Source of the DNA: an uncultured Acidobacteriota bacterium
Lineage (GTDB): Bacteria; Acidobacteriota; Thermoanaerobaculia; UBA5066; Gp7-AA6
Assembly (NCBI GenBank): GCA_963804915.1
Contig: CAWDSI010000034.1
Span: 14,675 to 78,674 of the forward strand
Direction: 5' to 3'
DNA length: 64,000 nucleotides
The notes beneath the pieces were generated by a model, which saw nothing but the letters and a program-made list of their open reading frames with translations, was not told the origin of the DNA and did not search any database. The position numbers were made by a program, and so were the translations under genes. Below are positions 2,820 through 54,464 of the stretch, one piece after another. Each line of letters begins with the position of its first letter. Within the stretch, counting starts at the first letter, position 1.

Positions 2820-4386
2820 TCAGACTTCCGGCAGCCGGACCTCGAAAACCGCGCCTCCGCCCTCGCGGTTCGCCGCCGTGATCCGCCCGCCGTAGCCCTC
2901 CGCGATGGCCGCGGCGATCGAGAGACCCAGGCCGCTGTGGCCGTCGGCGCTCGACGCGCCTTCGCCCGGCCGGTACGTGAAGAAGCGCTCGAAGACGCGC
3001 TCCATGTGCTGCGCCGGAATCCCCGGTCCGCGATCGGCGACGCGGATGACGGCGGTCGAGTCGCGCACGTTCCAAACTGACGACGACCTCCCCGCCCTCG
3101 GGACTGAACCCGGCCGCATTGTCGAGGAGATTCTCGACGATCTGGCTGACACGATCGGTCGAGCCCCGGACGGTCGCGGTCACGCGGCCCTCGAGGCGGA
3201 AGCGGACGCGCCCGTGCTCGCGGACGTTGAAGCTGTCGACGATCTCGGCGAGCAGCTGGTCGAGCGGGACGTTCTCCTTCGCCTCCTGATCGAGCCGCGC
3301 ATCGATCGAGGCGATGTCGCGCACGCCGGCCAGCAGGCGCTCGACGCGCGCGATGTCCCGCTGGACGATGTCGCGGAAGCGGCGGCGCTCCGCCGGATCG
3401 TCGACCTCGGCCGCCATCTCGGCGGCGGTGCGGATGGAGGTCAGCGGATTCCGAAGCTCGTGAGACACGTCGGCGGCGAAAGACTCGAGCGTCCGGATGC
3501 GCCCTTCGAGCCGCCGCGTCAGCTCCTGGAGCGCGCGGGCGAGGTCTCCGATCTGGTCGGCGCGGCGGGAGCCCTGGAAGCCTCCGGTGAGTCGGCCGCG
3601 GTGGTCGAGGATGGCCTTCGCCTCGTCGCGGAGGCGTCGCAGGGGACGGGCGATGGTGGCGGCCACGACGAACGAAAGAAGCGCCGCGACGGCGACGGAG
3701 AGGAGGACCACTTTGAAAAGGCCGAGGCGCTCGGCGTAGATATCTTGAAGGATACGGAATGTCGACTGGGAGACGAGAACGGCGCCGGCGATCTCTCCAT
3801 CGCGGCGGAAGGGGACGGCGCTGTAGAGCGTGACGGATCGCTGTCCCGATGCGGAGACTCGAGTCGCCGAGCCGTACTTGCCTTCGAGGGCGGCCTGGAT
3901 CTCGGGGCCGTCGAGGCGGCGGGCGGCGCCGTAGAACTCGGCAGACTCGAGAGTCGGCGTGGGCGGCTCGAAGATGCGGGCATAGATCCGGTAGAACCAG
4001 GCGCCCACGCGGTAGAGCAGCTTTTCGCGCGTGGGTTTCTTGCCGGACGAATATTCGTCGGAGGCGGGCGTGTCGTCGGGAGTCGGAGCGATGCGGCTCG
4101 AGTCGGCGAGCAGGTTGCCCCGGGCGTCGACCACGCGGAGGCGCGCTTCGAGGCGCCCCTGGAGGGATGCGATGAGGCGCTGCGCATCGTCCGCGTCGGT
4201 CTCCGTGAACGGTACCGTCGACAGCGCCGCGGCGAGCAGTCGCGCCTGCTGGACCATGCTGCGCTCCTGCGCGCGCAGGAGACGATGCTCCATGACATCG
4301 AGGTAGAGGAAGCCGAAGAGCGGCAGGAAGACGAGGAGGAGGTTGAACGCGAGCAGGCGGGGCCGGATGCCGGTGAAGATCCTCAC
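2820..4386 (-). CDS. ChvG-like sensor histidine kinase (TM-HAMP-HisKA-HATPase); one frameshift near 3068
   Basis: GTG 4386 overlaps the regulator stop. N-terminal RLLAFNLLLVFLPLFGFLYLD, H-box SHELRNPLTSI, N-box NLLDNA; VADRGPGIP and GLGLSIA continue in ORF 2820..3152. Confidence 0.88.
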
Positions 4387-8894: not shown

Positions 8895-10562
8895 CTATTC
8901 ACCGACCCAGAAGTCGATCTCGCGCAACGCGCGGCTGCCGGGCTTGAGGTAGCCGTCCTGCCAGGTCGCGGTGTCCTTGAGGCCCTTCCAGCGCTTCTTG
9001 ACGGGCTGGACCTGCCGCCGGAACCGCCAGCGGTACTGGTTGTAGATGGCCATGATGTTGGCCGCGTACGCGGCCGCGAGGCCGGGCGCGTCCTCGATGA
9101 TCAGGAGGTTCTCGTCGTTCGTGCCGCTGGCCTTCGGGCCGAGGTTGTGCGAGCCGGTCAGGAGAATCGGGTGCTTGCCGAACGGGTCGATGAGGACGAC
9201 CTTGCTGTGGACCATCGCGAAGGTGCCGGGGAGCTTCTTCATCTCGCGCACGAAGAACTTCGTCGGCTCGTCGATCGCGGCCGGCAGCACGACCGCGTAA
9301 TCGGCGTTCTCGAAGTTGCTCTCGTCGAAGAGCTTGACGGGATTCTTCGTCGTGCTCGGGTCCTGGTTGATGGCGCCGTGGATGTAGAGGCGCTTGCCGC
9401 CGACCTTCTTCTTCCGCGCCTTCTCGATGATCGAGTTCAGGAGCGAGTCGCTCGGCCCGGGGTTGAACATCAGAAAGAGAATCGCCTGCTTCGCGCCGAG
9501 GATCTTCTTCTTCGCCTCGTCGAGGTCGACCTGTCCGACGGTGGGCGTGAACCAGAGCCGCGTGTCGACCTTGCCGGTCTTCTCCTTGCGAACCTTCGAG
9601 TTGCTCGTCTTGAGATCCTCGGGCGTCGCGTCCAGGGCGTCGCGCAGGCGGTCCCACTGGTCGCGATACTTCGCCGCGAGGCCGGGGTCGTCGACGAGGA
9701 TCGAATTGTTCGCCTGCGTGCAGAGGCCTGTCTTCGTCCAGTTCTGGCTGCCGGTCCAGACCCAGCGGGGCTTCTTGGCGCCGTCGCAGACGACCAGGAA
9801 CTTGTTGTGGGCGAGCGCCCGCGGGGAGGTCATCCGATCGTGGAGATCGATCTTCCCGGCGAGCTCGCCGCGGGCTTCGTCGTTCTGGTCCTGACCCTTC
9901 TTCTCGACGCTGCCGTTGCCGAGAACGACGTGGGCCTTCTTGCCCAGCTTTTTCAGCGCCGCGATGAGCTGGGGATCGTCCAGCTCGTAGAGAACGGCGT
10001 ACACGTGGCGCTTCTTCTTGCGCGTCTCCTCCAGGAGCGCGAACAGCCGGGCGCCGAGGGGTCCGGTGAGGTAGTTGCGAAAGGAGTCATTCGGCGTGGA
10101 GATGATCTTCCTGAGCTTCGCGGTCTTCAGATCGTGTGCGGTCACGCCGAGCCGGCGCGAGACCCACTGCGCCGCGACGATGCCCCGGTTGAAGTACGCC
10201 TCCATGTTCGGCGTGACCTCCGCGGAGAGCGTGATCTTCCCGGTCCAGTCGCTCGCCCGGGCCTCGTCGGCCTGCAGGTTCTTCTTGTCGGGGCCGACCA
10301 TCGGGACGACGCGATACTGCAGCGTGTCGCCGGGCGCGGCCATGTAGTCGGTCCACTGGTACTTCTGGATCGGCCAGTCCGTGGAGGAGCGGCGCTCGCC
10401 CTCTTCCCACTCGTCATCCTCGAAACCGACCCAGGTCTTGACGGGCACCTCGACCCCGTTTCTGCGGCGGATGAGCGCGAAGCCGCGGCAGTCGGGAATC
10501 GGACCTGCGGGCTTCCAACCGATGAATACGTCGTCGCCGTTGTGGTACGCGCGGACCTTCAT
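8895..10562 (-). CDS. Phospholipase D superfamily protein with two HKD motifs
   Basis: HNKFLVVCD...WTGSQN and HSKVVLID...LTGSHN. Confidence 0.85.
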   Translation of the reverse strand: MKVRAYHNGDDVFIGWKPAGPIPDCRGFALIRRRNGVEVPVKTWVGFEDDEWEEGERRSSTDWPIQKYQWTDYMAAPGDTLQYRVVPMVGPDKKNLQADEARASDWTGKITLSAEVTPNMEAYFNRGIVAAQWVSRRLGVTAHDLKTAKLRKIISTPNDSFRNYLTGPLGARLFALLEETRKKKRHVYAVLYELDDPQLIAALKKLGKKAHVVLGNGSVEKKGQDQNDEARGELAGKIDLHDRMTSPRALAHNKFLVVCDGAKKPRWVWTGSQNWTKTGLCTQANNSILVDDPGLAAKYRDQWDRLRDALDATPEDLKTSNSKVRKEKTGKVDTRLWFTPTVGQVDLDEAKKKILGAKQAILFLMFNPGPSDSLLNSIIEKARKKKVGGKRLYIHGAINQDPSTTKNPVKLFDESNFENADYAVVLPAAIDEPTKFFVREMKKLPGTFAMVHSKVVLIDPFGKHPILLTGSHNLGPKASGTNDENLLIIEDAPGLAAAYAANIMAIYNQYRWRFRRQVQPVKKRWKGLKDTATWQDGYLKPGSRALREIDFWVGE

Positions 10563-44121: not shown

Positions 44122-46782
44122 ATGACAATTGAAGCGGGGGCCCGCCTCGGGCCTTACGAGATCCTCGCGCCCATCGGGGCGGGAGGAATGGGTGAGGTCT
44201 ATCGCGCGAAGGACACCCGCCTTGGGCGCGAGGTCGCGGTGAAGGTGCTGTCCTCGCATCTTTCGACGAGCGAGGAAATCCGCCAGCGCTTCGAGCGCGA
44301 GGCGAAGACGATTTCGCAGTTCTCGCACCCGCACATCTGCGCGCTCTACGACGTCGGACGGGAGGGCGACACCGACTTCCTCGTGATGGAGCTGCTCGAG
44401 GGCGAGAGCCTCGCGGACCGGCTCGGCAAGGGACCACTCCCGACCGAGCAGCTTCTGCGTTACGGGATCCAGATCGCCGACGCGCTCGACAAGGCCCACC
44501 GGCAGGGGATCGTCCACCGCGACCTGAAGCCCGGCAACGTGATGATCACGAAGACGGGCGTGAAGCTGCTCGACTTCGGACTGGCGAAGCCTCTGATCTC
44601 CGCCGGAGCGCGGCCTGCCTCCGGCGCCTCGGTCCTCGCCGACGGAAGCGCAGGTCAGCGCGCCTCTCACCGAGCGCGGGACGGTCCTCGGGACCTTCCA
44701 GTACATGGCGCCCGAGCAGCTCGAAGGCGGCGAGGCGGACGGGCGCTCCGACATCTTCGCGTTCGGCGCCGTGCTGTACGAAATGGCGACGGGCAAGAAA
44801 GCATTCACGGGCAAGAGCCAGGCCTCTCTGATCGGTTCGATCCTGCGCGACGACCCGCCCTCGATTTCCGAAACGGCGCCGATGATCCCGCCGGCTTTGA
44901 ACCGCGTCGTCAAGACCTGCCTGGCCAAGGATCCCGAGGACCGCTTCCAGACGGCGCACGACGCCAAGCTCCAGCTCGAGTGGATCGACGAGGGCGGCTC
45001 GCAGGCGGGCCTGCCGGCTCCCGTCGTCGCGCGGCGCAAGAACCGCGAGAAGCTCGCGTGGGCCGTGTCTGCGATCGCGATCGCCGCGGCGGGCCTCGCG
45101 TCCTACGGATATCTGCGCCGCGCTCCGAAGCCGCCGCGGACCGTCCGGTTCGAAGTCGCCATCCCTCCAAACGTCATCGCGATCGACACGCCCCGAATCT
45201 CCCCGGACGGCCGGATCCTGGCCTTCAACGCCACCGACTCGGGGGGGCTGACGCGGATCTGGATCCGTCCGCTGAACGCGCTCGCGGCCCAGCCGCTCCC
45301 GGGGACGGAGGGAACCACGCGCCCCTTCTGGTCGCCCGACAGCCGCTTCATCGGTTTCGTCGCAGGGCGGGAAGCTCATGAAGATCGACGTTTCGGGAGG
45401 TCCGCCGACGAAGATCTGCGACGCGCCGACCGGTTCCGACGGCACATGGAGCCCGGAGGGCGTCATCCTCTTCGACGGGACCGGCAACGATCCGATTCAG
45501 CGCGTCTCGGCCGCCGGCGGCACGCCCACCGTCGCCGTCAAGGCCGACAGCCTCGCGAAAAGAGACCCAGATCGGCTGGCCCGAGTTTCTTCCTGACGGC
45601 CGCCACTTCATGTACATGTCGATCAACCAGAAGGTGGATGACAGCGCTTATCGGATCGGCTCGCTCGACTCCTCGGACACGAAGTCGTTCGCGCCCGCGC
45701 AGACGATGCTGACCTACGCTCCGCCGGGCTATCTGCTCTTCGTACGGGACCGGACGCTGGTGGCCCAGCCTTTCGACGCGAAGGCGATGAAGACGACCGG
45801 CGAGCCCGTCCCTCTCGCCGAGCAGATCGGAACCGACGCGGTCGGGCTCGCTCGTTTCTCCGTCTCGCGCGACGGCGTTCTCGCGTACCGCACCGGCGAG
45901 TCGGGGAACCGTCTCGTCTGGGTCGACCGGTCCGGAAAGGAGCTCGACACGCTCGGTGACCCGGGCGAGTACGGCGAGCCCGACCTCTCGCCCTCGGGCG
46001 ACCGGCTCGCATTCGACCTTGTCGACCTCCGCTCGAACAAGTCCGACATATGGATTCGCGACCTCGCGCGCGGCGTGAACTCGCGTTTCACGTTCGCCCC
46101 CGGCAACGCCTTCGCGCCCCTCTGGTCACGCGGAGGCGAGACCATCGTCTTCACGTCGGATCGCGAGGGAGCGCCCGGTCTCTACGAGAAGGCCGCGAGC
46201 GGCCAGGGTGAAGAAAAGCTGCTCCTCAAGGAGGAGGCGCTGGTCATTCCCATCAGCTTCTCCCCCGACGGACGCTTCCTCGCCTACCAGATGCGCAACC
46301 CGAAGACCAGCTGGGACATCATGATCCTGCCCATGACCGGCGAGCGAAAGCCCGTTGCCTTCGCCGCGGCATCGTTCAATGAGAATCAGGGGAAGTTCTC
46401 CCCGGACGGGCGCTTCCTCGCCTACATTTCGAACGAGTCGGGCCGCAACGAGATTTATGTGCAGAGCTATCCCGGCCCAGGCGGAAAGTGGCAGATCTCG
46501 AACGCGGGCGGCACAGACCCCCACTGGCGCGCCGACGGCAAGGAGCTCTACTACCGGAGCCCCGACCAGAAGCTGATGTCGGTCGAAATCCGGGGAGACG
46601 CCTCGGTCGAGGCCGGCATCCCGCAGCCGCTGTTCCTCGGGCGCGTCCACATTGGCACCGCCCGCAACAAGCTCGTGCCGGCGAAGGACGGCCAGCGCTT
46701 CCTCTTCGTCGCGCCGCTCGGCCGCGACGCCATGACGCCCACGACCGTCGTCCTGAACTGGTTCGCGGGACTGGGCAAGTGA
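44122..46782 (+). CDS. K6: Ser/Thr kinase - TM - TolB/PD40 beta-propeller; frameshifts near 44650, 45365 and 45560
   Basis: [17 protein letters not shown]; ends PTTVVLNWFAGLGK. Confidence 0.9.
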
Positions 46783-46816
46783 ACCGTCAGTGGAAAGGAA
46801 CTCGATGAGTCTCGAA
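46702..46816 (+). repeat. Direct repeat A: K6 3' end, spacer and K7 start (partner at 49378-49491)
   Basis: About 115 bp, differing from the partner by about 7 substitutions and 1 indel; includes the AAAGGAA RBS. Confidence 0.85.
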
Positions 46817-49458
46817 CCCGGAACGAGGCTCGGTCCCTACGAGATCTCGGCGCCGATCGGGGCCGGGGGCATGGGCGAGGTCTACCGCGCGAGGGACACG
46901 CGCCTGGGGCGCGACGTTGCCGTGAAGGTCCTGCCGGCGCACATGTCCTCTTCGCCGGAGCTGCGCCAGAGGCTCGAGCGCGAGGCGAAGACGATCTCGC
47001 AGCTCTCGCATCCGCACATCTGCATGCTCCACGACGTCGGTCACCAGAACGGGACCGACTACCTGGTCATGGAGTTTCTGGAGGGCGAGACGCTCGCGGA
47101 TCGGCTGGCGAAGGGGGCGTTGCCCGTCGAGCAGGCGCTTCGGATCGGGACCGAGATCGCCGGAGCGCTGGACGCGGCGCATCGGAGCGGGATCGTGCAT
47201 CGGGACCTGAAGCCCGGCAACATCATGCTGACGAAGACGGGCGTGAAGCTCCTCGACTTCGGCCTGGCGAAGCTCGCGGCGCCGACGACGCCCGTGTCGC
47301 AGGCGACGAGCCTGCCGACCGCTCTGCAGGAGAGCCAGCCGCTCACGAGCCGGGGGACGATCCTCGGGACGTTCCAGTACATGTCGCCCGAGCAGCTCGA
47401 GGGAAAAGACGCCGACGCGCGCAGCGACATCTTCGCCTTCGGCTGCGTCCTCTACGAGATGCTGACGGGCCGGAAAGCGTTCACGGGAAAGAGCCAGGCC
47501 TCGCTGATCGGCTCGATCATGAATACCGAGCCCCCGCCCATCTCAACGATTCAGCCGATGACGCCTCCGGCGCTGGACCGCGTCGTCAAGGGATGTCTCG
47601 CGAAGGAGCCCGAGCATCGCTGGAGCACCGCGCACGACGTGATGCTCCAGCTCCAGTGGGTCGCGGAGGGAGGGTCGGCCGCGGGGCTTCCGGCGCCCGT
47701 CGCCGCACGACGCAGGAGCCGCGAAAAGCTGGCCTGGGGCGTCGCCGCCGCGCTTCTGCTCGCCGTCGCGGCGCTCGCCTACGGTTTCATTCGCCGGGCG
47801 CCGAAGCCACTGCGCGTCGTTCGATTCGAGGTCGCCAATCCGCCGGCCATCACCACGATCGACGCTCCGAAAATCTCCCCGGACGGAAAGACGCTCGCCT
47901 TCAATGCGACGGATTCGGGAGGCAAGACTCAGATCTGGCTCCGGCCGCTCAACGCGCTCACGGCGCAGCCCCTGCCCGGAACCGAGGGAACGCGCCGCCC
48001 CTTCTGGTCTCCCGACAGTCGCTATCTGGCGTTCATCGCGGACGGCAAGCTCAAGAAAATCGACGTCACCGGAGGTCCACCCACCAAGATCTGCGACGCG
48101 CCGACCGGAGTCGACGGGAGCTGGAGTCCCGAAGGCGTCATCCTCTTCGACGGCACGGGCACGGATCCGATCTACCGGGTCCCGGCCGCGGGCGGAACGC
48201 CGGTCGTCGCCGTGAAGGCCGATCCGGAGCACAAGGAGATCCAGGTCGGATGGCCCGAGTTTCTCCCCGACGGCCGCCAGTACATTTACATGGTCATCAA
48301 TCAGAAGGCCGAGCTGAACTCGTACCGCATCGGCTCGCTCGATTCGAAAGAGACGAAGCCGTTCGCGCCCGCGCAGATCATGCTGGTCTACGCCCCCCAG
48401 GGCTACCTCCTGTTCTTGAAGGACCGGACGCTCATGGCGCAGCCGTTCGACGCGAAGGCGATCAAGACGACGGGAGAATCCGGTTCCCATCGCGGAGCAG
48501 ATCGGCACCGACGCGGTCGGGCTGGCGCGCTTCTCGGTCTCGCGCGACGGCGTGCTCGCATACCGGACGGGAGAATCGGGTAACCGCATGCTCTGGATGG
48601 ATCGGTCGGGGAAAGAGCTCGACACCCTCGGCGACCCGGCGGAGTACGAGGATCCGGATTTTTCCCCGGCGGGCGACCTGCTCGCGTTCGACCTCACCGA
48701 CACGCGTTCCGGCAAGTCGGACATCTGGATCCGCGATCTTTCGCGAGGCGTCAACTCGCGATTCACCTTCGGCCCGGACAATTCTTTCGCTCCCGTATGG
48801 TCGCGGCGCGGCGACGCGATCGTCTACGCCTCGGATCGGGACGGGGCGTTCGCCATCTACCAGAAAGCGACGAGCGGGAACGGGGAGGAGAAGCTTCTGG
48901 TCAAGTCGGACGCGCTCCTCGTTCCCATGAGCTTTTCTCCCGACGGCCGTTTCCTCGCGTATCAACGCCAGGACCGCAAGACGAACTGGGATGTCCTGCT
49001 CCTTCCTCTGACCGGCGAGGAGAAGCCGGTCACGTTCCGCGCCACTCGCTTCCGCGACGTCCAACCGAGGTTCTCACCCGACGGCCGCTTCATCGCGTAT
49101 GCCGTCAAATGAGTCGGGCCGCAACGAGGTCTACGTGCAGAGCTATCCCGGGCCCGGACGGACGTGGCAGATCTCGACGTCCGGTGGAACCGACCCGCAA
49201 TGGCGCCGGGACGGAAAGGAGCTCTACTACCGCGGCCTCGACCAGAAACTCATGGCCGTCGACATCCGGGGCGGCGACGCGCTCGAGCCGGGCCTCCCGC
49301 AGGCGCTGTTCCAGGCTCGAGTCTCGATCGGTCTGCGGAGCACGAAATACCTTCCGGACCAGACAGGGCAGAAGTTTCTCTTCGTCGCGCCGCTCGGCCG
49401 CGATGCCATGACGCCCACGACCGTCGTCCTGAACTGGTTTGCGGGACTGGGAAAGTAA
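46805..49458 (+). CDS. K7: Ser/Thr kinase - TM - TolB/PD40 beta-propeller; frameshifts near 48480 and 49100
   Basis: ATG 46805 after AAAGGAA; [19 protein letters not shown]; ends PTTVVLNWFAGLGK. Confidence 0.92.
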
Positions 49459-49491
49459 ACCGTCGTTGAAAGGAACTCAATGAGTCTCGAA
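49378..49491 (+). repeat. Direct repeat B: K7 3' end, spacer and K8 start
   Basis: Partner of 46702-46816. Confidence 0.85.
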
Positions 49492-52132
49492 GCCGGAACG
49501 AAGCTCGGTCCCTATGAGATCTCGGCGCCTGTCGGCGCCGGAGGGATGGGAGAGGTTTACCGGGCGAAGGACACGCGGCTGGGCCGCGACGTCGCCGTCA
49601 AGGTGCTGCCCGCGCACCTGTCGGCGAGCGCGGAGCTGCGGCAGCGGCTCGAGCGCGAGGCGAAGACGATTTCGTCGCTCTCGCATCCGCACATCTGCAT
49701 GCTCCACGACGTCGGCCACCAGAACGGGACCGACTACCTCGTCATGGAGTTCCTGGAGGGCGAGACGCTGGCGGATCGGCTGGCCAAGGGCGCGCTGCCG
49801 ATGGAGCAGGCGCTGAAGATCGGCATCGAGACCGCGGGCGCTCTCGACGCCGCGCACAAGAGCGGCATCGTCCACCGCGACCTGAAGCCCGGCAACATCA
49901 TGCTGACGAAGTCGGGCGTGAAGCTGCTCGACTTCGGCCTGGCGAAGCTCGCGACTCCGGACAAGCAGCGCCGTCTCGCAGGCGACGAGCATGCCGACGG
50001 CGCTGCAGCAGAGCCAGCCGCTGACGTCCCGCGGAACGATCCTCGGGACCTTCCAGTACATGGCGCCCGAGCAGCTCGAGGGCGGCGAGGCCGACGCGCG
50101 CAGCGACATCTTCGCGTTCGGCTGCGTCCTCTACGAGATGCTGACGGGCCAGAAGGCGTTCACCGGCAAGAGCCAGGCGAGCCTGATCTCCTCGATCATG
50201 GGCTCGGACCCGCCGCCGATCTCCTCGATCCAGCCGATGATCCCGGCCTCTCTCGATCGGATCGTCAAGGGATGCATCGCGAAGGAGCCCGAACAGCGCT
50301 GGTCGACCGCGCACGACGTGATGCTGCAATTGCAGTGGATCGCGGAGGGCGGCTCGATGGCGGGAGTGCCGGCGCCGGTCGTCGCGCGGCGGAAGAACCG
50401 CGAGAAGCTGTCATGGGCGGTCGCGGCGGCCGCGCTTCTCGCGGCGGCCGTCTTTGCGTGGGGCTTCGTAGGCCGGGCGCCGGTGCCGCCGCCGCTCGTC
50501 CGCTTCGAGATCCCCGTGCCCTCGGACGTCACGTCGATCGACGTACCGCGCATCTCGCCCAACGGGAAGATCCTCGCGTTCGACGCGACCGATGTGACCG
50601 GGAAGAACCGGATCTGGATCCGCCCTCTGAACGCGCTCGTCGCTCAGCCGCTGGCCGGCACCGAGGGAGGGGCCCGTCCCTTCTGGTCGCCAGACAGCAA
50701 GTACGTCGGCTTCGTCGCCGACGGCATCATGAAGAAGGTCGACGTGACGGGCGGTCCCCCGACCAAGATCTGCGACGCACCCGGTGCGTCCGACGGAAGC
50801 TGGAGCCCCGAAGGCGTCATCCTCTTCGACGGCACCGGCACCGATCCGATCTATCGGGTCCCGGCCAGCGGAGGTGCGCGCACGCCGTGGGTCGAGCTCG
50901 ATGCCGCCCGCAAGGAAACGTCGGTCGGATGGCCGGAGTTTCTTCCCGACGGCAAACACTTTCTCTTCATGGCCAGCGGCGAGAAGTCGGAGGAAACGGC
51001 CTACTGGGTCGGCACGATCGACTCGAAGGAGCGCCGCAAACTCGCGCCCGCCCAGACGCTCGTCACCTACGCGCCGGGGTACCTGCTTTTCGTCCGCGAC
51101 CGCACGCTCGTCGCCCAGCCGTTCGATGCGAAGGCACTGAAGACGCTGGGCGAGCCGACGCCGCTGGCCGAGCAGATCGGCACCGACGCCGCCGGCCTGG
51201 CGCGATTCTCGGTGTCCCGGAACGGCGTGCTGGCGTATCGCACGGGCGAGACGGGCGGGCGGCTGCTGTGGCGCGACCGCTCGGGGAAGGAACTGGAATC
51301 CCTCGGGGGATCCGCCTCCTATGGCAACCCCGTGCTCTCGCCCTCCGGCGATCGGATCGCCTTCGGCATCGTCGATGCCCGAAGCGCCAAGACGGACATC
51401 TGGGTGCGCGACGTCGCCCGAGGGGTCAATTCACGGTTGAGTCTCGGGGCCGGAAACAACTTCCGGCCGGTCTGGTCGGCCGACGGCGAGAAGATCTTCT
51501 TCACGACCGACCGTGAAGGCACCCTCGACCTGTGGGAGAAGGCAACGCGAGGCCAGGGCGTCGAGAAGGTCCTGTTCAAGAACGAGGAGATCAAGTACGC
51601 GGCGAGCGTCAGCCCCGACGGCCGCTATCTCGCATACGCCGCGCAGAACCCGAAAACAGGGTGGGACCTCTGGGTGCTGCCGACCTTTGGCGACCGCAAG
51701 CCGATCCCGGTCGCCGTTTCGACGTTTCAGGAGAACACCCCGATGTTCTCTCCGGACGGGAAGTTGATCGCGTTCGTGTCGGAAGAGTCCGGCCGCCCCG
51801 AGATCTACGTCCAGACCTTTCCGGACGGAACCGGCAAATGGCAGGTCTCCAACGGCGGCGGCATCGATCCCAGCTGGCGGCGCGACGGTAAGGAGCTGTA
51901 CTACCGCGCCCCGGACCAGAAGCTCATGGCGGTCGATATTCGGACCGTGGGCGACTTCCAGGCCGGCATTCCGCAGCCGCTCTTTTCGGTCGCCGTCCGG
52001 ACGGGCAACGCCCGAAACAAATACATGCCGTCGGCCGACGGCCAGCGGTTCCTCTTCGACGCGCCTCTCGGCCGCGAGGCCTTGAGCCCGACGACGATGG
52101 TGCTCAACTGGACCTCCAGCCTCGGGAAGTAG
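49480..52132 (+). CDS. K8: Ser/Thr kinase - TM - TolB/PD40 beta-propeller; frameshift near 49965
   Basis: ORFs 49480..51516 (kinase N-part) and 49991..52132; ends MVLNWTSSLGK. Confidence 0.92.
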
Positions 52133-52137
52133 GCCCG

Positions 52138-54464
52138 TTGACCGCAACCGCGGAGCGCCGCTGGGGACTCGCGGCCGTGACAGCGGTGCTCGGATGCTTC
52201 GCCCTGCTGGCCGTGCGATCGTCCGCGGCTCCCGAACCGCGTGTGGGCTCGCTCCTGCTCGTCGCGGCCGCCCTGGAGTTGTTCCACGGCTTCCGGCGCT
52301 CGAGCGAGGCGGGCCAGCGCGAGGCCTGGACGGGCGGCCTGATCACGCTCCTGATGGGACTCCTGCTTCTGAATGCTCCGGACCTGGCGTCCGGGGCGCT
52401 GGTCGTCTTCTTCGGCGGCGGGTTCGCGCTCGACGGAATCCGGCACGCGAAACACGCGCTCGGCGCGCGAAAGGCTGGTCGCCCGTTCACCGCGCATGCG
52501 TGGGCGGCCGTCGGCAACTTCGCTCTCGCGGCGCTGCTCGCGGTGCTCGGCGGATGGGCGCCGGACTGGATGGTTCCGATCGCTGGCGCGCTCCGCATCT
52601 TCGGGACGGCCTGGGGCATCGCGATGGCTCCGGTCTTCGATGCGGCCGACGCAGGAGACACGGTGGTTCGCGACCTCGGCCTCGAAGATCGGCCCGAAAT
52701 CGCGGCGCTCGCGGAGCGGCTCGAGGACGAGGAGGCCCACCGCGCGCCGATCGACCGGCACTGGATCTTCGTGCTGATCCTCACGCTCTTCGCGATCCAC
52801 CTCGGGCGAATGGGATTCGACCGCACGGCCCTCGGCATCCTGGCGCCGGGTGTCGCCGTGCTCGGCGATCTGTTCGTCGGGCTCGTCGTGGGATTCCTCA
52901 TCGTGCTGCCGGGGCGCCTGGCCTTGCTTCGGCTGACCGGCCCGCTCGCTCGGCGCGCCGCGGACTGGCGCGCGGCGGCGAAGCCCTCCTGGCGGTCGCG
53001 TCTGGTGGATCGCTGGCTGACCCGTCGGCTTCGCGCCAACATTCGCATGCGCGACGCGCGCTACTCTTTTGCCGCCGCCGCCTCGCGCAGTCTGCGGGTC
53101 GGCCTGCCGGTGGCGGCGGTCTTCGCGGCCACGATCCCGGTCTGGGGCATGAGCTGGTATTTCGACACGGAGAACTGGGCGTCCGGCGTCTGGGACTCCT
53201 GGGCCGAGGAGCGTACCGATGTGTGGCGCGCGGCGATGACCTCCGCGACGGCCGAAGGCGAGCGCGCCGCGGGGCGGCCGGCGGACTTCGCCGTGGCGCC
53301 GGCCGGGACCGGGAAAGACTTCGCGTTCGTGGTCGTCGGCGACACCGGAGAGGGCGACGCGTCGCAGCATGTGCTCCGCCGCTCGCTGCTCCGCGCCACC
53401 GCGCAGCCCGAAGTGAAGTTCCTCATCGTCTCTTCCGACGTCGTCTATCCCTCGGGCGAGATGAAGGACTACGAGCGCAAGTTCTGGCTGCCCTTCATGG
53501 GAGTCGAGAAGCCGGTCTACGCGATTCCGGGCAACCACGACTGGTACGACGCGCTCGACGGCTTTGCCGTGACCTTCTTCACGCCCGAGGCCGCGCGGCG
53601 AGCGCTCCGGGCACGCGCCGAAGTCCGACCACCACCTGACGACGACCACCGACGCCGAGGCGGACGCGCTCGTCGCCGAGGCAGCGCGGCTGCGTGCGGC
53701 GTACGGCGTTCCGACCGGACTTCAGCAGGCGCCCTATTTCCAGATCCAGACTCCGGACTTCGCCCTGATCGCCGTCGACACCGGCATTCGCCGCGCGGTC
53801 GATGCGGCGCAGCTCGCCTGGCTGCAAATCGGCGCTCGACGCCTCGCGCGGCAAGTTCACGATGGCGCTTCTCGGTCATCCTTTCTACGCCGTCGGCGCG
53901 TACCAGGGCGCCAACAGGGAGGAATTCGACGCGCTGCACCGCCTGCTGCGTGAGCACGGGGTGCCTCTGGTCATGGCGGGCGACACGCACGATCTCGAGT
54001 ACTACCGGGAGCCGGGCGCTTCAGGTCGCGCGACCATGCACCACGTGGTGAACGGCGGAGGCGGCGCCTATCTGAGCCTGGGCACCGCCCTCGCGAAGCC
54101 TGAAAGCATGCCCACGCGGGAGTGGGCGTTCTATCCCTCGACCGCGCCCATCGTCGAAAAGGTCGTGACCAACAATCCGTCGTGGAAGCGCCCGGTCTGG
54201 TTGTGGGCCAGCCGCCTCGGCGGATGGCCGTGGTCGTCCGAGTGGCTCTCGGCCGCGTTCGACTACAACGTCGCACCCTTCTTCCAGAGCTTCGTCGAGG
54301 TCCGTGTCGAGCCCTCGGCCGGCCGCGTTCGGCTCCTGCCGTGGGGCGTTCACGGTCGCCTGCGCTGGTCCGACCTTCAGACCTCCGACGGGTTGCGTCC
54401 CGAGGGGGTCGCGCCGGACGCGCCGGTCGAGTGGACCCTGCCGCTCGGAGCGCCGGCGCGCTGA
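52138..54464 (+). CDS. Multi-TM membrane protein with a C-terminal calcineurin-like metallophosphoesterase domain; frameshifts near 53630 and 53830
   Basis: About 350 aa of hydrophobic helices, then [25 protein letters not shown] and AGDTH motifs. Confidence 0.78.

Follow-up and report, generated by a model that had tools for sequence, protein, structure and literature searches.

The window, that is, the whole stretch of 64,000 nucleotides (nt) analyzed here, belongs to an uncultured, Thermoanaerobaculia-like Acidobacteriota bacterium (G000:C34:14675-78674; G000 is the label of the genome under study, and labels of the form G0xx denote related genomes) and has a G+C content of 68%. A tblastn search reveals about 12 co-oriented genes of a kinase-propeller family at 24.6-64 kb of the window. 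Three neighboring members, K6, K7, and K8, are described here. The middle gene, K7, is a mosaic that combines a kinase of the K8 lineage with a propeller of the K6 lineage. The genes and the parts of K7 are as follows.

44122-46782, plus strand: K6, receptor Ser/Thr kinase with a transmembrane (TM) helix and a PD40/TolB-like propeller; ortholog group B, type I kinase (frames, tblastn).
46805-49458, plus strand: K7, mosaic gene; ortholog group C (frames, alignment, Pfam).
49480-52132, plus strand: K8, ortholog group D, type II kinase (frames, tblastn, alignment).
46805-47778, plus strand: kinase and juxtamembrane module of K7, codons 1 to ~325, of type II and common to the K8/D lineage.
47690-48150, plus strand: breakpoint zone of K7, codons ~295-450, with the best single estimate at 47777/47779, codon 326 (MaxChi, quartet profile).
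47779-49458, plus strand: TM and propeller sensor module of K7, sister of the K6/B lineage.

The three genes are separated by spacers of 22 nt (K6-K7) and 21 nt (K7-K8) and are pairwise 69-73% identical in nucleotide sequence overall. The ATG of K7 at 46805 aligns with the family start, and a GTG at 46790 is an alternative further upstream. As read from the sequence, each gene encodes a Hanks kinase, a conserved linker, one predicted TM helix, and a predicted extracytoplasmic PD40/TolB-like β-propeller. The Hanks catalytic motifs are present in all three kinases and comprise GxGxxG, the VAxK lysine, HRDLKPxN, DFG, and an APE-like (S/A)PEQ. Without its two extra bases (see below), K7 matches Pkinase (PF00069) at residues 12-277 with 170.1 bits (cut-off 31.7). 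Its C-terminal half matches PD40 (PF07676) with 77 bits (cut-off 20.9). K7 also passes the cut-off of 22 for DPPIV_N, with 24.5 bits, and narrowly misses that of 24 for Peptidase_S9_N, with 22.8 bits. The kinase of K7 is separated from the propeller by a hydrophobic stretch, LAWGVAAALLLAVAALAYGFI, that lies between RR..REK and RRAPKP.

A preliminary description of this DNA had taken K7 for an unequal-crossover chimera of K8 (kinase) and K6 (sensor) and named sliding-window identity as a way to check it. The peptides that it quoted are all found in the genes, including those of the kinase domain that are common to K7 and K8 and differ in K6. K6 and K7 have GTDAVGLARFSVSRDGVLAYRTGESGNR..KELDTLGDP in common and end in the same 27 residues, FLFVAPLGRDAMTPTTVVLNWFAGLGK, and K8 differs in the propeller as described (GTDAAG..SRNG..ETGGR..KELESLGG). 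In the sliding-window comparison, K7 displays a two-part similarity rather than an equal distance to K6 and K8 along its length. The identity between K7 and K8 is 82-93% from 46685 to ~47570. On the 3′ side of ~47570, K6 and K7 are 65-81% identical (90% in the last window), as against 51-77% for K7 and K8.

The informative sites divide in the same way. Ahead of codon 326 (nt 47777/47779), K7 has the same base as K8 at 161 sites and the same base as K6 at 58; on the 3′ side the counts are 125 and 285, respectively. MaxChi for the three genes reaches 106.6, and the maximum among 1000 permutations is 22.2 (p<0.001). There is one dominant change-point in G000, at codon 326. This estimate coincides with the end of the segment coding for the TM helix, 3′ of the linker EGGS.AGLPAPV.ARR..REKLAW.

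Trees of the two halves agree with the MaxChi result. The alignment contains K5, K6, K7, and K8 of the window and 30 homologs from 11 genomes of the same genus, giving 34 rows. The propeller tree resolves into clean ortholog groups A, B (containing K6), C (containing K7), and D (containing K8). In the kinase part, C and D form a clade with 100/100 support, and a grouping of B with C is rejected by the approximately unbiased (AU) test (p=5e-65). In the propeller part, it is B and C that form a clade, with support of 99/99 on DNA and 100/99 on protein, and a grouping of C with D is rejected on protein (AU p=0.0019). The quartet profile of the ortholog groups flips once, from CD/AB to BC/AD, between residues ~300 and ~450. 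The K6 propeller lies inside the B clade with G023_B and G007_B (100/99), and K8 lies in the D clade in both its kinase (96/96) and its propeller (100/100).

Nonsynonymous (dN) and synonymous (dS) divergences, calculated by the NG86 method, follow the same division. The kinase part of K7 has a dN of 0.084 and a dS of 0.48 to K8, and a dN of 0.215 and a dS of 0.75 to K6. Its propeller has a dN of 0.172 to K6 (dS 0.97) and of 0.321 to K8. After removal of the inserted bases, dN/dS is about 0.18 in each half of K7, which indicates purifying selection, as had been proposed for this region.

The K8 propeller (50500-52132) forms a long terminal branch of 0.26-0.28, compared with ~0.09 in its orthologs, and the K8 kinase is ordinary. 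The long branch suggests either faster evolution of the sensor in G000 or leftover assembly errors.

The K7 mosaic is old. Full-length orthologs are found in G023 (84% nucleotide identity), G013 (84%), G007 (79%), and G014 (78%), and a partial one in G002. These orthologs are the best matches of the K7 propeller, at 80-90% identity, as against only 68-81% for K6. The C genes of G023 and G007 show the same mosaic against their own neighbors, with MaxChi values of 73.5 and 52.6. The K7 kinase is no nearer to its own K8 than to the C or D kinases of other species, and a sister relationship of the K7 and K8 kinases is rejected (AU p=0.003). The mosaic thus predates the split of the C-bearing species of the genus and did not arise freshly in G000. 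The event had been called not brand new, and this stands, but it is older than was supposed and is not particular to G000, with orthologs in at least five other species of related soil Acidobacteriota.

The junctions on the two sides of K7 carry a repeat that belongs to G000 itself.

46695-46870, plus strand: junction repeat copy 1, comprising the last ~29 codons of K6, a 22-nt spacer with the GGAAAGGAAC ribosome-binding site, and the first ~22 codons of K7.
49371-49545, plus strand: junction repeat copy 2, comprising the last ~29 codons of K7, a 21-nt spacer, and the first ~22 codons of K8.

The duplicated spacer with its ribosome-binding site was already recognized in the preliminary description, and its two copies (46702-46816 and 49378-49491) are identical at 108 of 115 positions (94%). 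The coding differences within the repeat are indeed synonymous or change the stop codon (TGA/TAA). At ~46695 the identity jumps from 0.54-0.70 to at least 0.90. Between the K7 and K8 copies, the identity is 0.77 in the spacer and 0.88 in the first 66 nt of the gene, and the junctions of other genomes reach at most 0.52 and 0.83, respectively. A derived N-terminal sequence, PYEISAP, occurs only in K7 and K8 of G000. The B-C spacers of G023 and G007, 4 nt in length, bear no relation to their C-D spacers (~25-40 nt). The spacer duplication had been read as a mark of the founding event; it is absent from the architecture of G023 and G007 and specific to G000. The junction repeat is probably a later and short (~175 nt) homogenization in the G000 lineage, and it is possible that it represents a retained ancestral state.

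The identical C-terminus of K6 and K7 had been offered as evidence of their kinship. A C-terminal motif, (F/L)(F/I/V)VAPLGR(D/E)(A/S)MTPTTVVLNWFAGLGK, is found in some members of group D as well as in groups A, B, and C. Since the tail is conserved across the family, it says little about the kinship of K6 and K7 and was rejected as a sign of it.

As deposited, each of the three genes is broken into more than one frame, and together they contain six extra single bases. The extra bases lie near 44639, 45364, and 45549 in K6 (frames 1 to 2 to 3 to 1), near 48479 and 49102 in K7 (frames 2 to 3 to 1), and near 49966 in K8 (frames 1 to 2). They were placed by homolog alignment and frame segmentation and lie outside long homopolymers. 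The preliminary description missed the frameshifts in all three genes, and the peptides that it quoted span different raw frames.

If only the alignment columns occupied in at least half of the rows are kept, each of the 34 sequences yields an 884-codon frame with zero stops. In the kinase-gene alignment, private insertions number zero in all three rows from short-read-type assemblies (hundreds of contigs), and several occur in many rows from few-contig assemblies. The named relatives are uncultured Acidobacteriota/Thermoanaerobaculia metagenome-assembled genomes (MAGs), many of them belonging to the Microflora Danica (MFD) set, which is Nanopore-only and was polished once with Medaka (PMC12313526). 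In the 5.17-Mb G000 assembly, seven-state frame segmentation counts ~1,110 places (2.1 per 10 kb) where the frame switches on the same strand and no stop codon is close by. The one-extra-base direction accounts for 81% of the frame switches, which are found on nearly every contig and also in non-kinase genes of the window.

Given the ~1,110 such sites genome-wide, the six frameshifts are almost certainly consensus errors of a long-read assembly, and K6, K7, and K8 would then be intact in the organism. The rpoB gene was considered as a gauge of assembly quality and set aside, being intact (1451 amino acids) but uninformative as one gene at ~2 errors per 10 kb. Elsewhere in the window, frame switches are seen for example at 3071, 13813, 18771, 21008, 36565, 53596, and 53832. 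At about one indel per 5 kb, annotation of G000 that relies on open reading frames splits many genes, and its pseudogene calls are not trustworthy.

Three explanations would do without an old recombination event in the family. One supposes a single gene tree, on which unequal constraint or rates in the two domains, or convergence, create the discordance. It would draw on the much stronger conservation of kinase domains than of propellers, on the saturated synonymous sites of the propeller, on the long branch of the K8 propeller, and on the DNA-level AU test of C with D in the propeller, which is marginal (p=0.068). The two halves nevertheless differ in topology, not merely in distance, with strong support each way, and the switch is abrupt and occurs at a single place. 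Moreover, dS differs between the modules of the same gene pairs (A-B, 0.26-0.31 in the kinase versus 0.84-0.87 in the propeller; C-D, 0.36-0.48 versus 0.82-1.11), and several independent mosaics share the same boundary. We regard this explanation as highly unlikely.

Even less credit can be given to a recent unequal crossover between K6 and K8 within the G000 lineage, a reading prompted by the duplicated spacer, the identical tail, and the earlier proposal to look for a two-gene K6-K8 state in related genomes. The 94% identity of the junction repeat and the derived PYEIS N-terminus confined to K7 and K8 would fit a recent event, but the rejected sister relationship of K7 and K8, the closer match of the K7 propeller to its orthologs than to K6, and the orthologous mosaics in at least five species speak against it, and the high-identity tract specific to G000 is merely ~175 nt long. 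A recent crossover is therefore refuted for the whole K7 gene and survives for the junction tract alone. Least probable of the three is an assembly chimera in which paralogous reads were mis-joined. The assembly is error-prone (~1,100 indel-like sites) and the region repetitive. However, the same full-length gene with the same types of neighbor recurs in assemblies of other species, and five independent assemblies have the gene, which shows that K7 is not such a chimera, and paralogs that are 69-73% identical are too divergent to mislead a long-read assembler. The orthologous mosaics elsewhere, along with the rejection of K7 and K8 as sisters, exclude both a recent G000 event and an assembly chimera for the whole gene.

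Related genomes contain further, independent mosaics that switch at the same boundary. The gene G018_b (L018, G018:C2, 7917-10709) has a kinase of the C clade (100/99) and a propeller of the A clade (100/100), with a breakpoint at codons ~284-301, and lies directly upstream of a D gene. The gene G012_x1 (L017, G012:C6, 4828-7646, minus strand) has a type I, B-like kinase joined, at a breakpoint near codon 318, to a propeller that branches at the base of the C clade; the gene is either an unconverted C gene or a secondary swap. In G023 and G007, the kinases of the A and B genes are shared up to codons 288-295. These additional independent swaps fit the earlier idea that recombination creates new kinase-sensor pairings.

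Conserved sequence ends with the linker (codons 271-310), past which the divergent TM and propeller follow; other blocks of the gene are more highly conserved than the linker. Nucleotide identity between types is 0.79-0.82 in the linker and falls to 0.61 past it. Breakpoints may thus cluster as much because chimeras with intact domains survive as because of a mechanistic hot spot. Judging from the positions, such swaps seem to succeed where the linker meets the TM helix.

Three of these genomes show further peculiarities of their arrays. The order of the G012 array is unlike that of the other genomes, with a D-type gene upstream. G023 contains two parallel A-B-C arrays, on contigs C1 and C2 (L013 and L024), that differ by a few percent, and in the C2 copy the A and B kinases are each other's nearest relatives. 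The paired arrays suggest either that the MAG mixes strains or that a segment was duplicated and has evolved in concert. The C gene of G013 (L014, G013:C1, ~9330-9450, minus strand) has no preceding B gene, and its start and upstream spacer resemble those of K6 of G000. A deletion close to its 5′ end may have fused B with C, though the MaxChi signal there is weak (11.2, codon 44).

The account that we favor, and hold to be probable, is that K7 is the G000 ortholog of an old mosaic lineage, C, that recombined among array neighbors. The kinase and juxtamembrane half of C would derive from the D (K8) lineage, and the TM and propeller half from the B (K6) lineage. Homologous recombination between neighbors of the array would have taken place in, or just 3′ of, the conserved linker/TM region, before the C-bearing species of the genus diverged. 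The simplest path would be a single unequal crossover between a B gene and a downstream D gene, yielding B - (D5′/B3′) - D. We give this path a little less than an even chance and favor it slightly over conversion of the kinase half. Unequal crossover was the mechanism put forward in the preliminary description; the K6-K7-K8 order is as it predicts, but it is not separable from kinase-half conversion.

A two-gene state of the kind from which K7 could have arisen does exist, in that G010 has a B gene directly followed by a D gene, without C. The rpoB identity to G000 is 87-88% for G010 and G011 (88% for G010) versus 90-92% for the C-bearing genomes. A nesting of C inside B is not rejected (AU p=0.22), and neither is a grouping of C with D1 that excludes the D genes of G010, G011, and G017 (AU p=0.40). 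The propeller trees, however, favor a loss of C in G010.

Several points, besides the marginal DNA-level test mentioned above, weigh against the favored account. In the propeller trees the B genes stay together and none falls within C, those of G010 and G017 included (support of 75-94%); at face value, this would place the B-C split before the split of G010 and make the B-D adjacency in G010 a result of C loss. Among the type II kinases, the AU test does not discriminate between alternative orders, including the monophyly of C, the monophyly of D, and C with D1 (p=0.23-0.40). The polarity of the event would be read from rpoB identity and two gene trees. G012_x1, with its C-type propeller and type I kinase, is possibly an unconverted C gene, which would favor conversion, and concerted evolution is seen between the A and B kinases in both G023 and G007 (dN 0.005, clustering within contigs). 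In addition, saturated synonymous sites, at unequal levels in each module, bar a comparison of the ages of the two halves. Dating by NG86 dS was dropped for this reason, as dS saturates at ~0.5-0.75 in the kinase and at ~0.8-1.1 in the propeller. The observed values are 0.36-0.48 for the C-D kinases and 0.86-0.97 for the B-C propellers, and type I and type II kinases reach only 0.52-0.75. The lower dS of the C-D kinases is consequently no sign of youth.

Conversion of the kinase half is possible but, in our judgment, somewhat doubtful. In this alternative, C would have begun as a full duplicate of the B lineage with a type I kinase, and its 5′ half would later have been replaced, in a non-reciprocal transfer, by type II kinase sequence from the D gene on its downstream side, with no crossover. 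In G023 and G007, the A kinase hardly differs from the B kinase in protein sequence (dN 0.005, dS 0.26-0.31) though the propellers of A and B do (dN 0.28), which indicates that conversion of kinase halves is active in the family, and G023c2_A and G023c2_B cluster together. The pairing of a type I kinase with a C-clade propeller in G012_x1 and the monophyly of B outside C would also be expected, and G018_b, with its C kinase and A propeller directly 5′ of D, would not result from a single unequal crossover. Conversion, on the other hand, does not predict the B-C-D order with a downstream 5′ half and an upstream 3′ half, as crossover does. It also needs an additional loss of C in G010, and G012_x1 could equally be a secondary swap.

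Other features of the window and of the genome concern the surroundings of K6-K8. The gene 3′ of K8 (52138-54464) has a membrane N-terminus and a metallophosphoesterase-like part with GDTGEG and GNHD, and is likewise broken up by what look like two frameshifts, at about 53596 and 53832. The 5.17-Mb G000 assembly contains at least 92 Hanks-type kinase N-lobes by tblastn, an unusually large kinome for that genome size. Ser/Thr kinase families are also expanded in the large genomes of other soil bacteria, such as the myxobacteria. The kinase loci of G000 include C34, C3:18879-26871, C8:2934-13441, C27:276138-281825, C35:53155-57987, and C13, and many of the N-lobes sit in further tandem arrays, for example five consecutive kinases on C8.

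Products of unequal crossover of the anti-Lepore type are known in the haemoglobin delta/beta genes and the red/green opsins. They share with K6-K8 a middle gene composed of the downstream 5′ part and the upstream 3′ part, one breakpoint in a conserved stretch, and three co-oriented genes. K7 differs from them in being bacterial, old, common to several species, and diverged by 14-25% in nucleotides, rather than being a polymorphism, and in that conversion is a live alternative. Plant receptor-kinase clusters and nucleotide-binding leucine-rich repeat (NLR) clusters evolve through unequal crossing-over and gene conversion. There, as in the arrays described here, recombination re-pairs variable sensors with conserved signaling domains, and the signaling part evolves in concert while the sensor part diversifies; the kingdom and the domain families are different.

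Among bacterial receptor kinases, Mycobacterium tuberculosis PknD has a propeller made of NHL repeats and is encoded by a single gene, whereas K7 contains PD40 (TolB-like) and DPPIV_N-like repeats and belongs to arrays of up to ~12 genes. The parts of PknD are laid out as is predicted for K7: a cytoplasmic Hanks kinase at the N-terminus is followed by a juxtamembrane linker and one TM helix, and an extracytoplasmic β-propeller forms the C-terminal part. PknD is a receptor Ser/Thr kinase with an extracellular sensor (PMC1847690). Candidatus Solibacter usitatus Ellin6076, which belongs to the Acidobacteriota like G000, also has many Ser/Thr kinase paralogs under purifying selection (PMC3174227). 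Its paralogs are mostly less than 50% identical, and the paper makes no mention of propeller or TolB-type sensors (PMC3174227). K6-K8 lie in tandem, are 69-73% identical in nucleotides, and have re-assorted modules. In a limited literature search, no account of tandem kinase-propeller arrays recombining in Acidobacteriota came up, which does not prove that there is none.

K7 is an ordinary product of recombination inside a tandem gene family. As the mechanism is a textbook one and the event is old, the general view is unchanged. K7 nonetheless provides a statistically supported bacterial case in which a new sensor/kinase pairing has come from recombination of tandem paralogs and has been kept under purifying selection in several species. 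On a broader and more tentative reading, the arrays of the genus may work by mix-and-match, in which kinase types I and II are repeatedly re-paired with diversifying propellers at the linker/TM boundary, and neighboring kinase halves are kept alike by conversion. K7 and its C orthologs, G018_b, G012_x1, and the A/B kinase pairs would then be four separate instances. If true, this would make the arrays a bacterial counterpart of plant receptor-gene clusters. For the Ser/Thr kinase field, these natural chimeras, in which one kinase occurs with different sensors and one sensor type with different kinases, bear on the question of which half governs ligand specificity and which substrate specificity.

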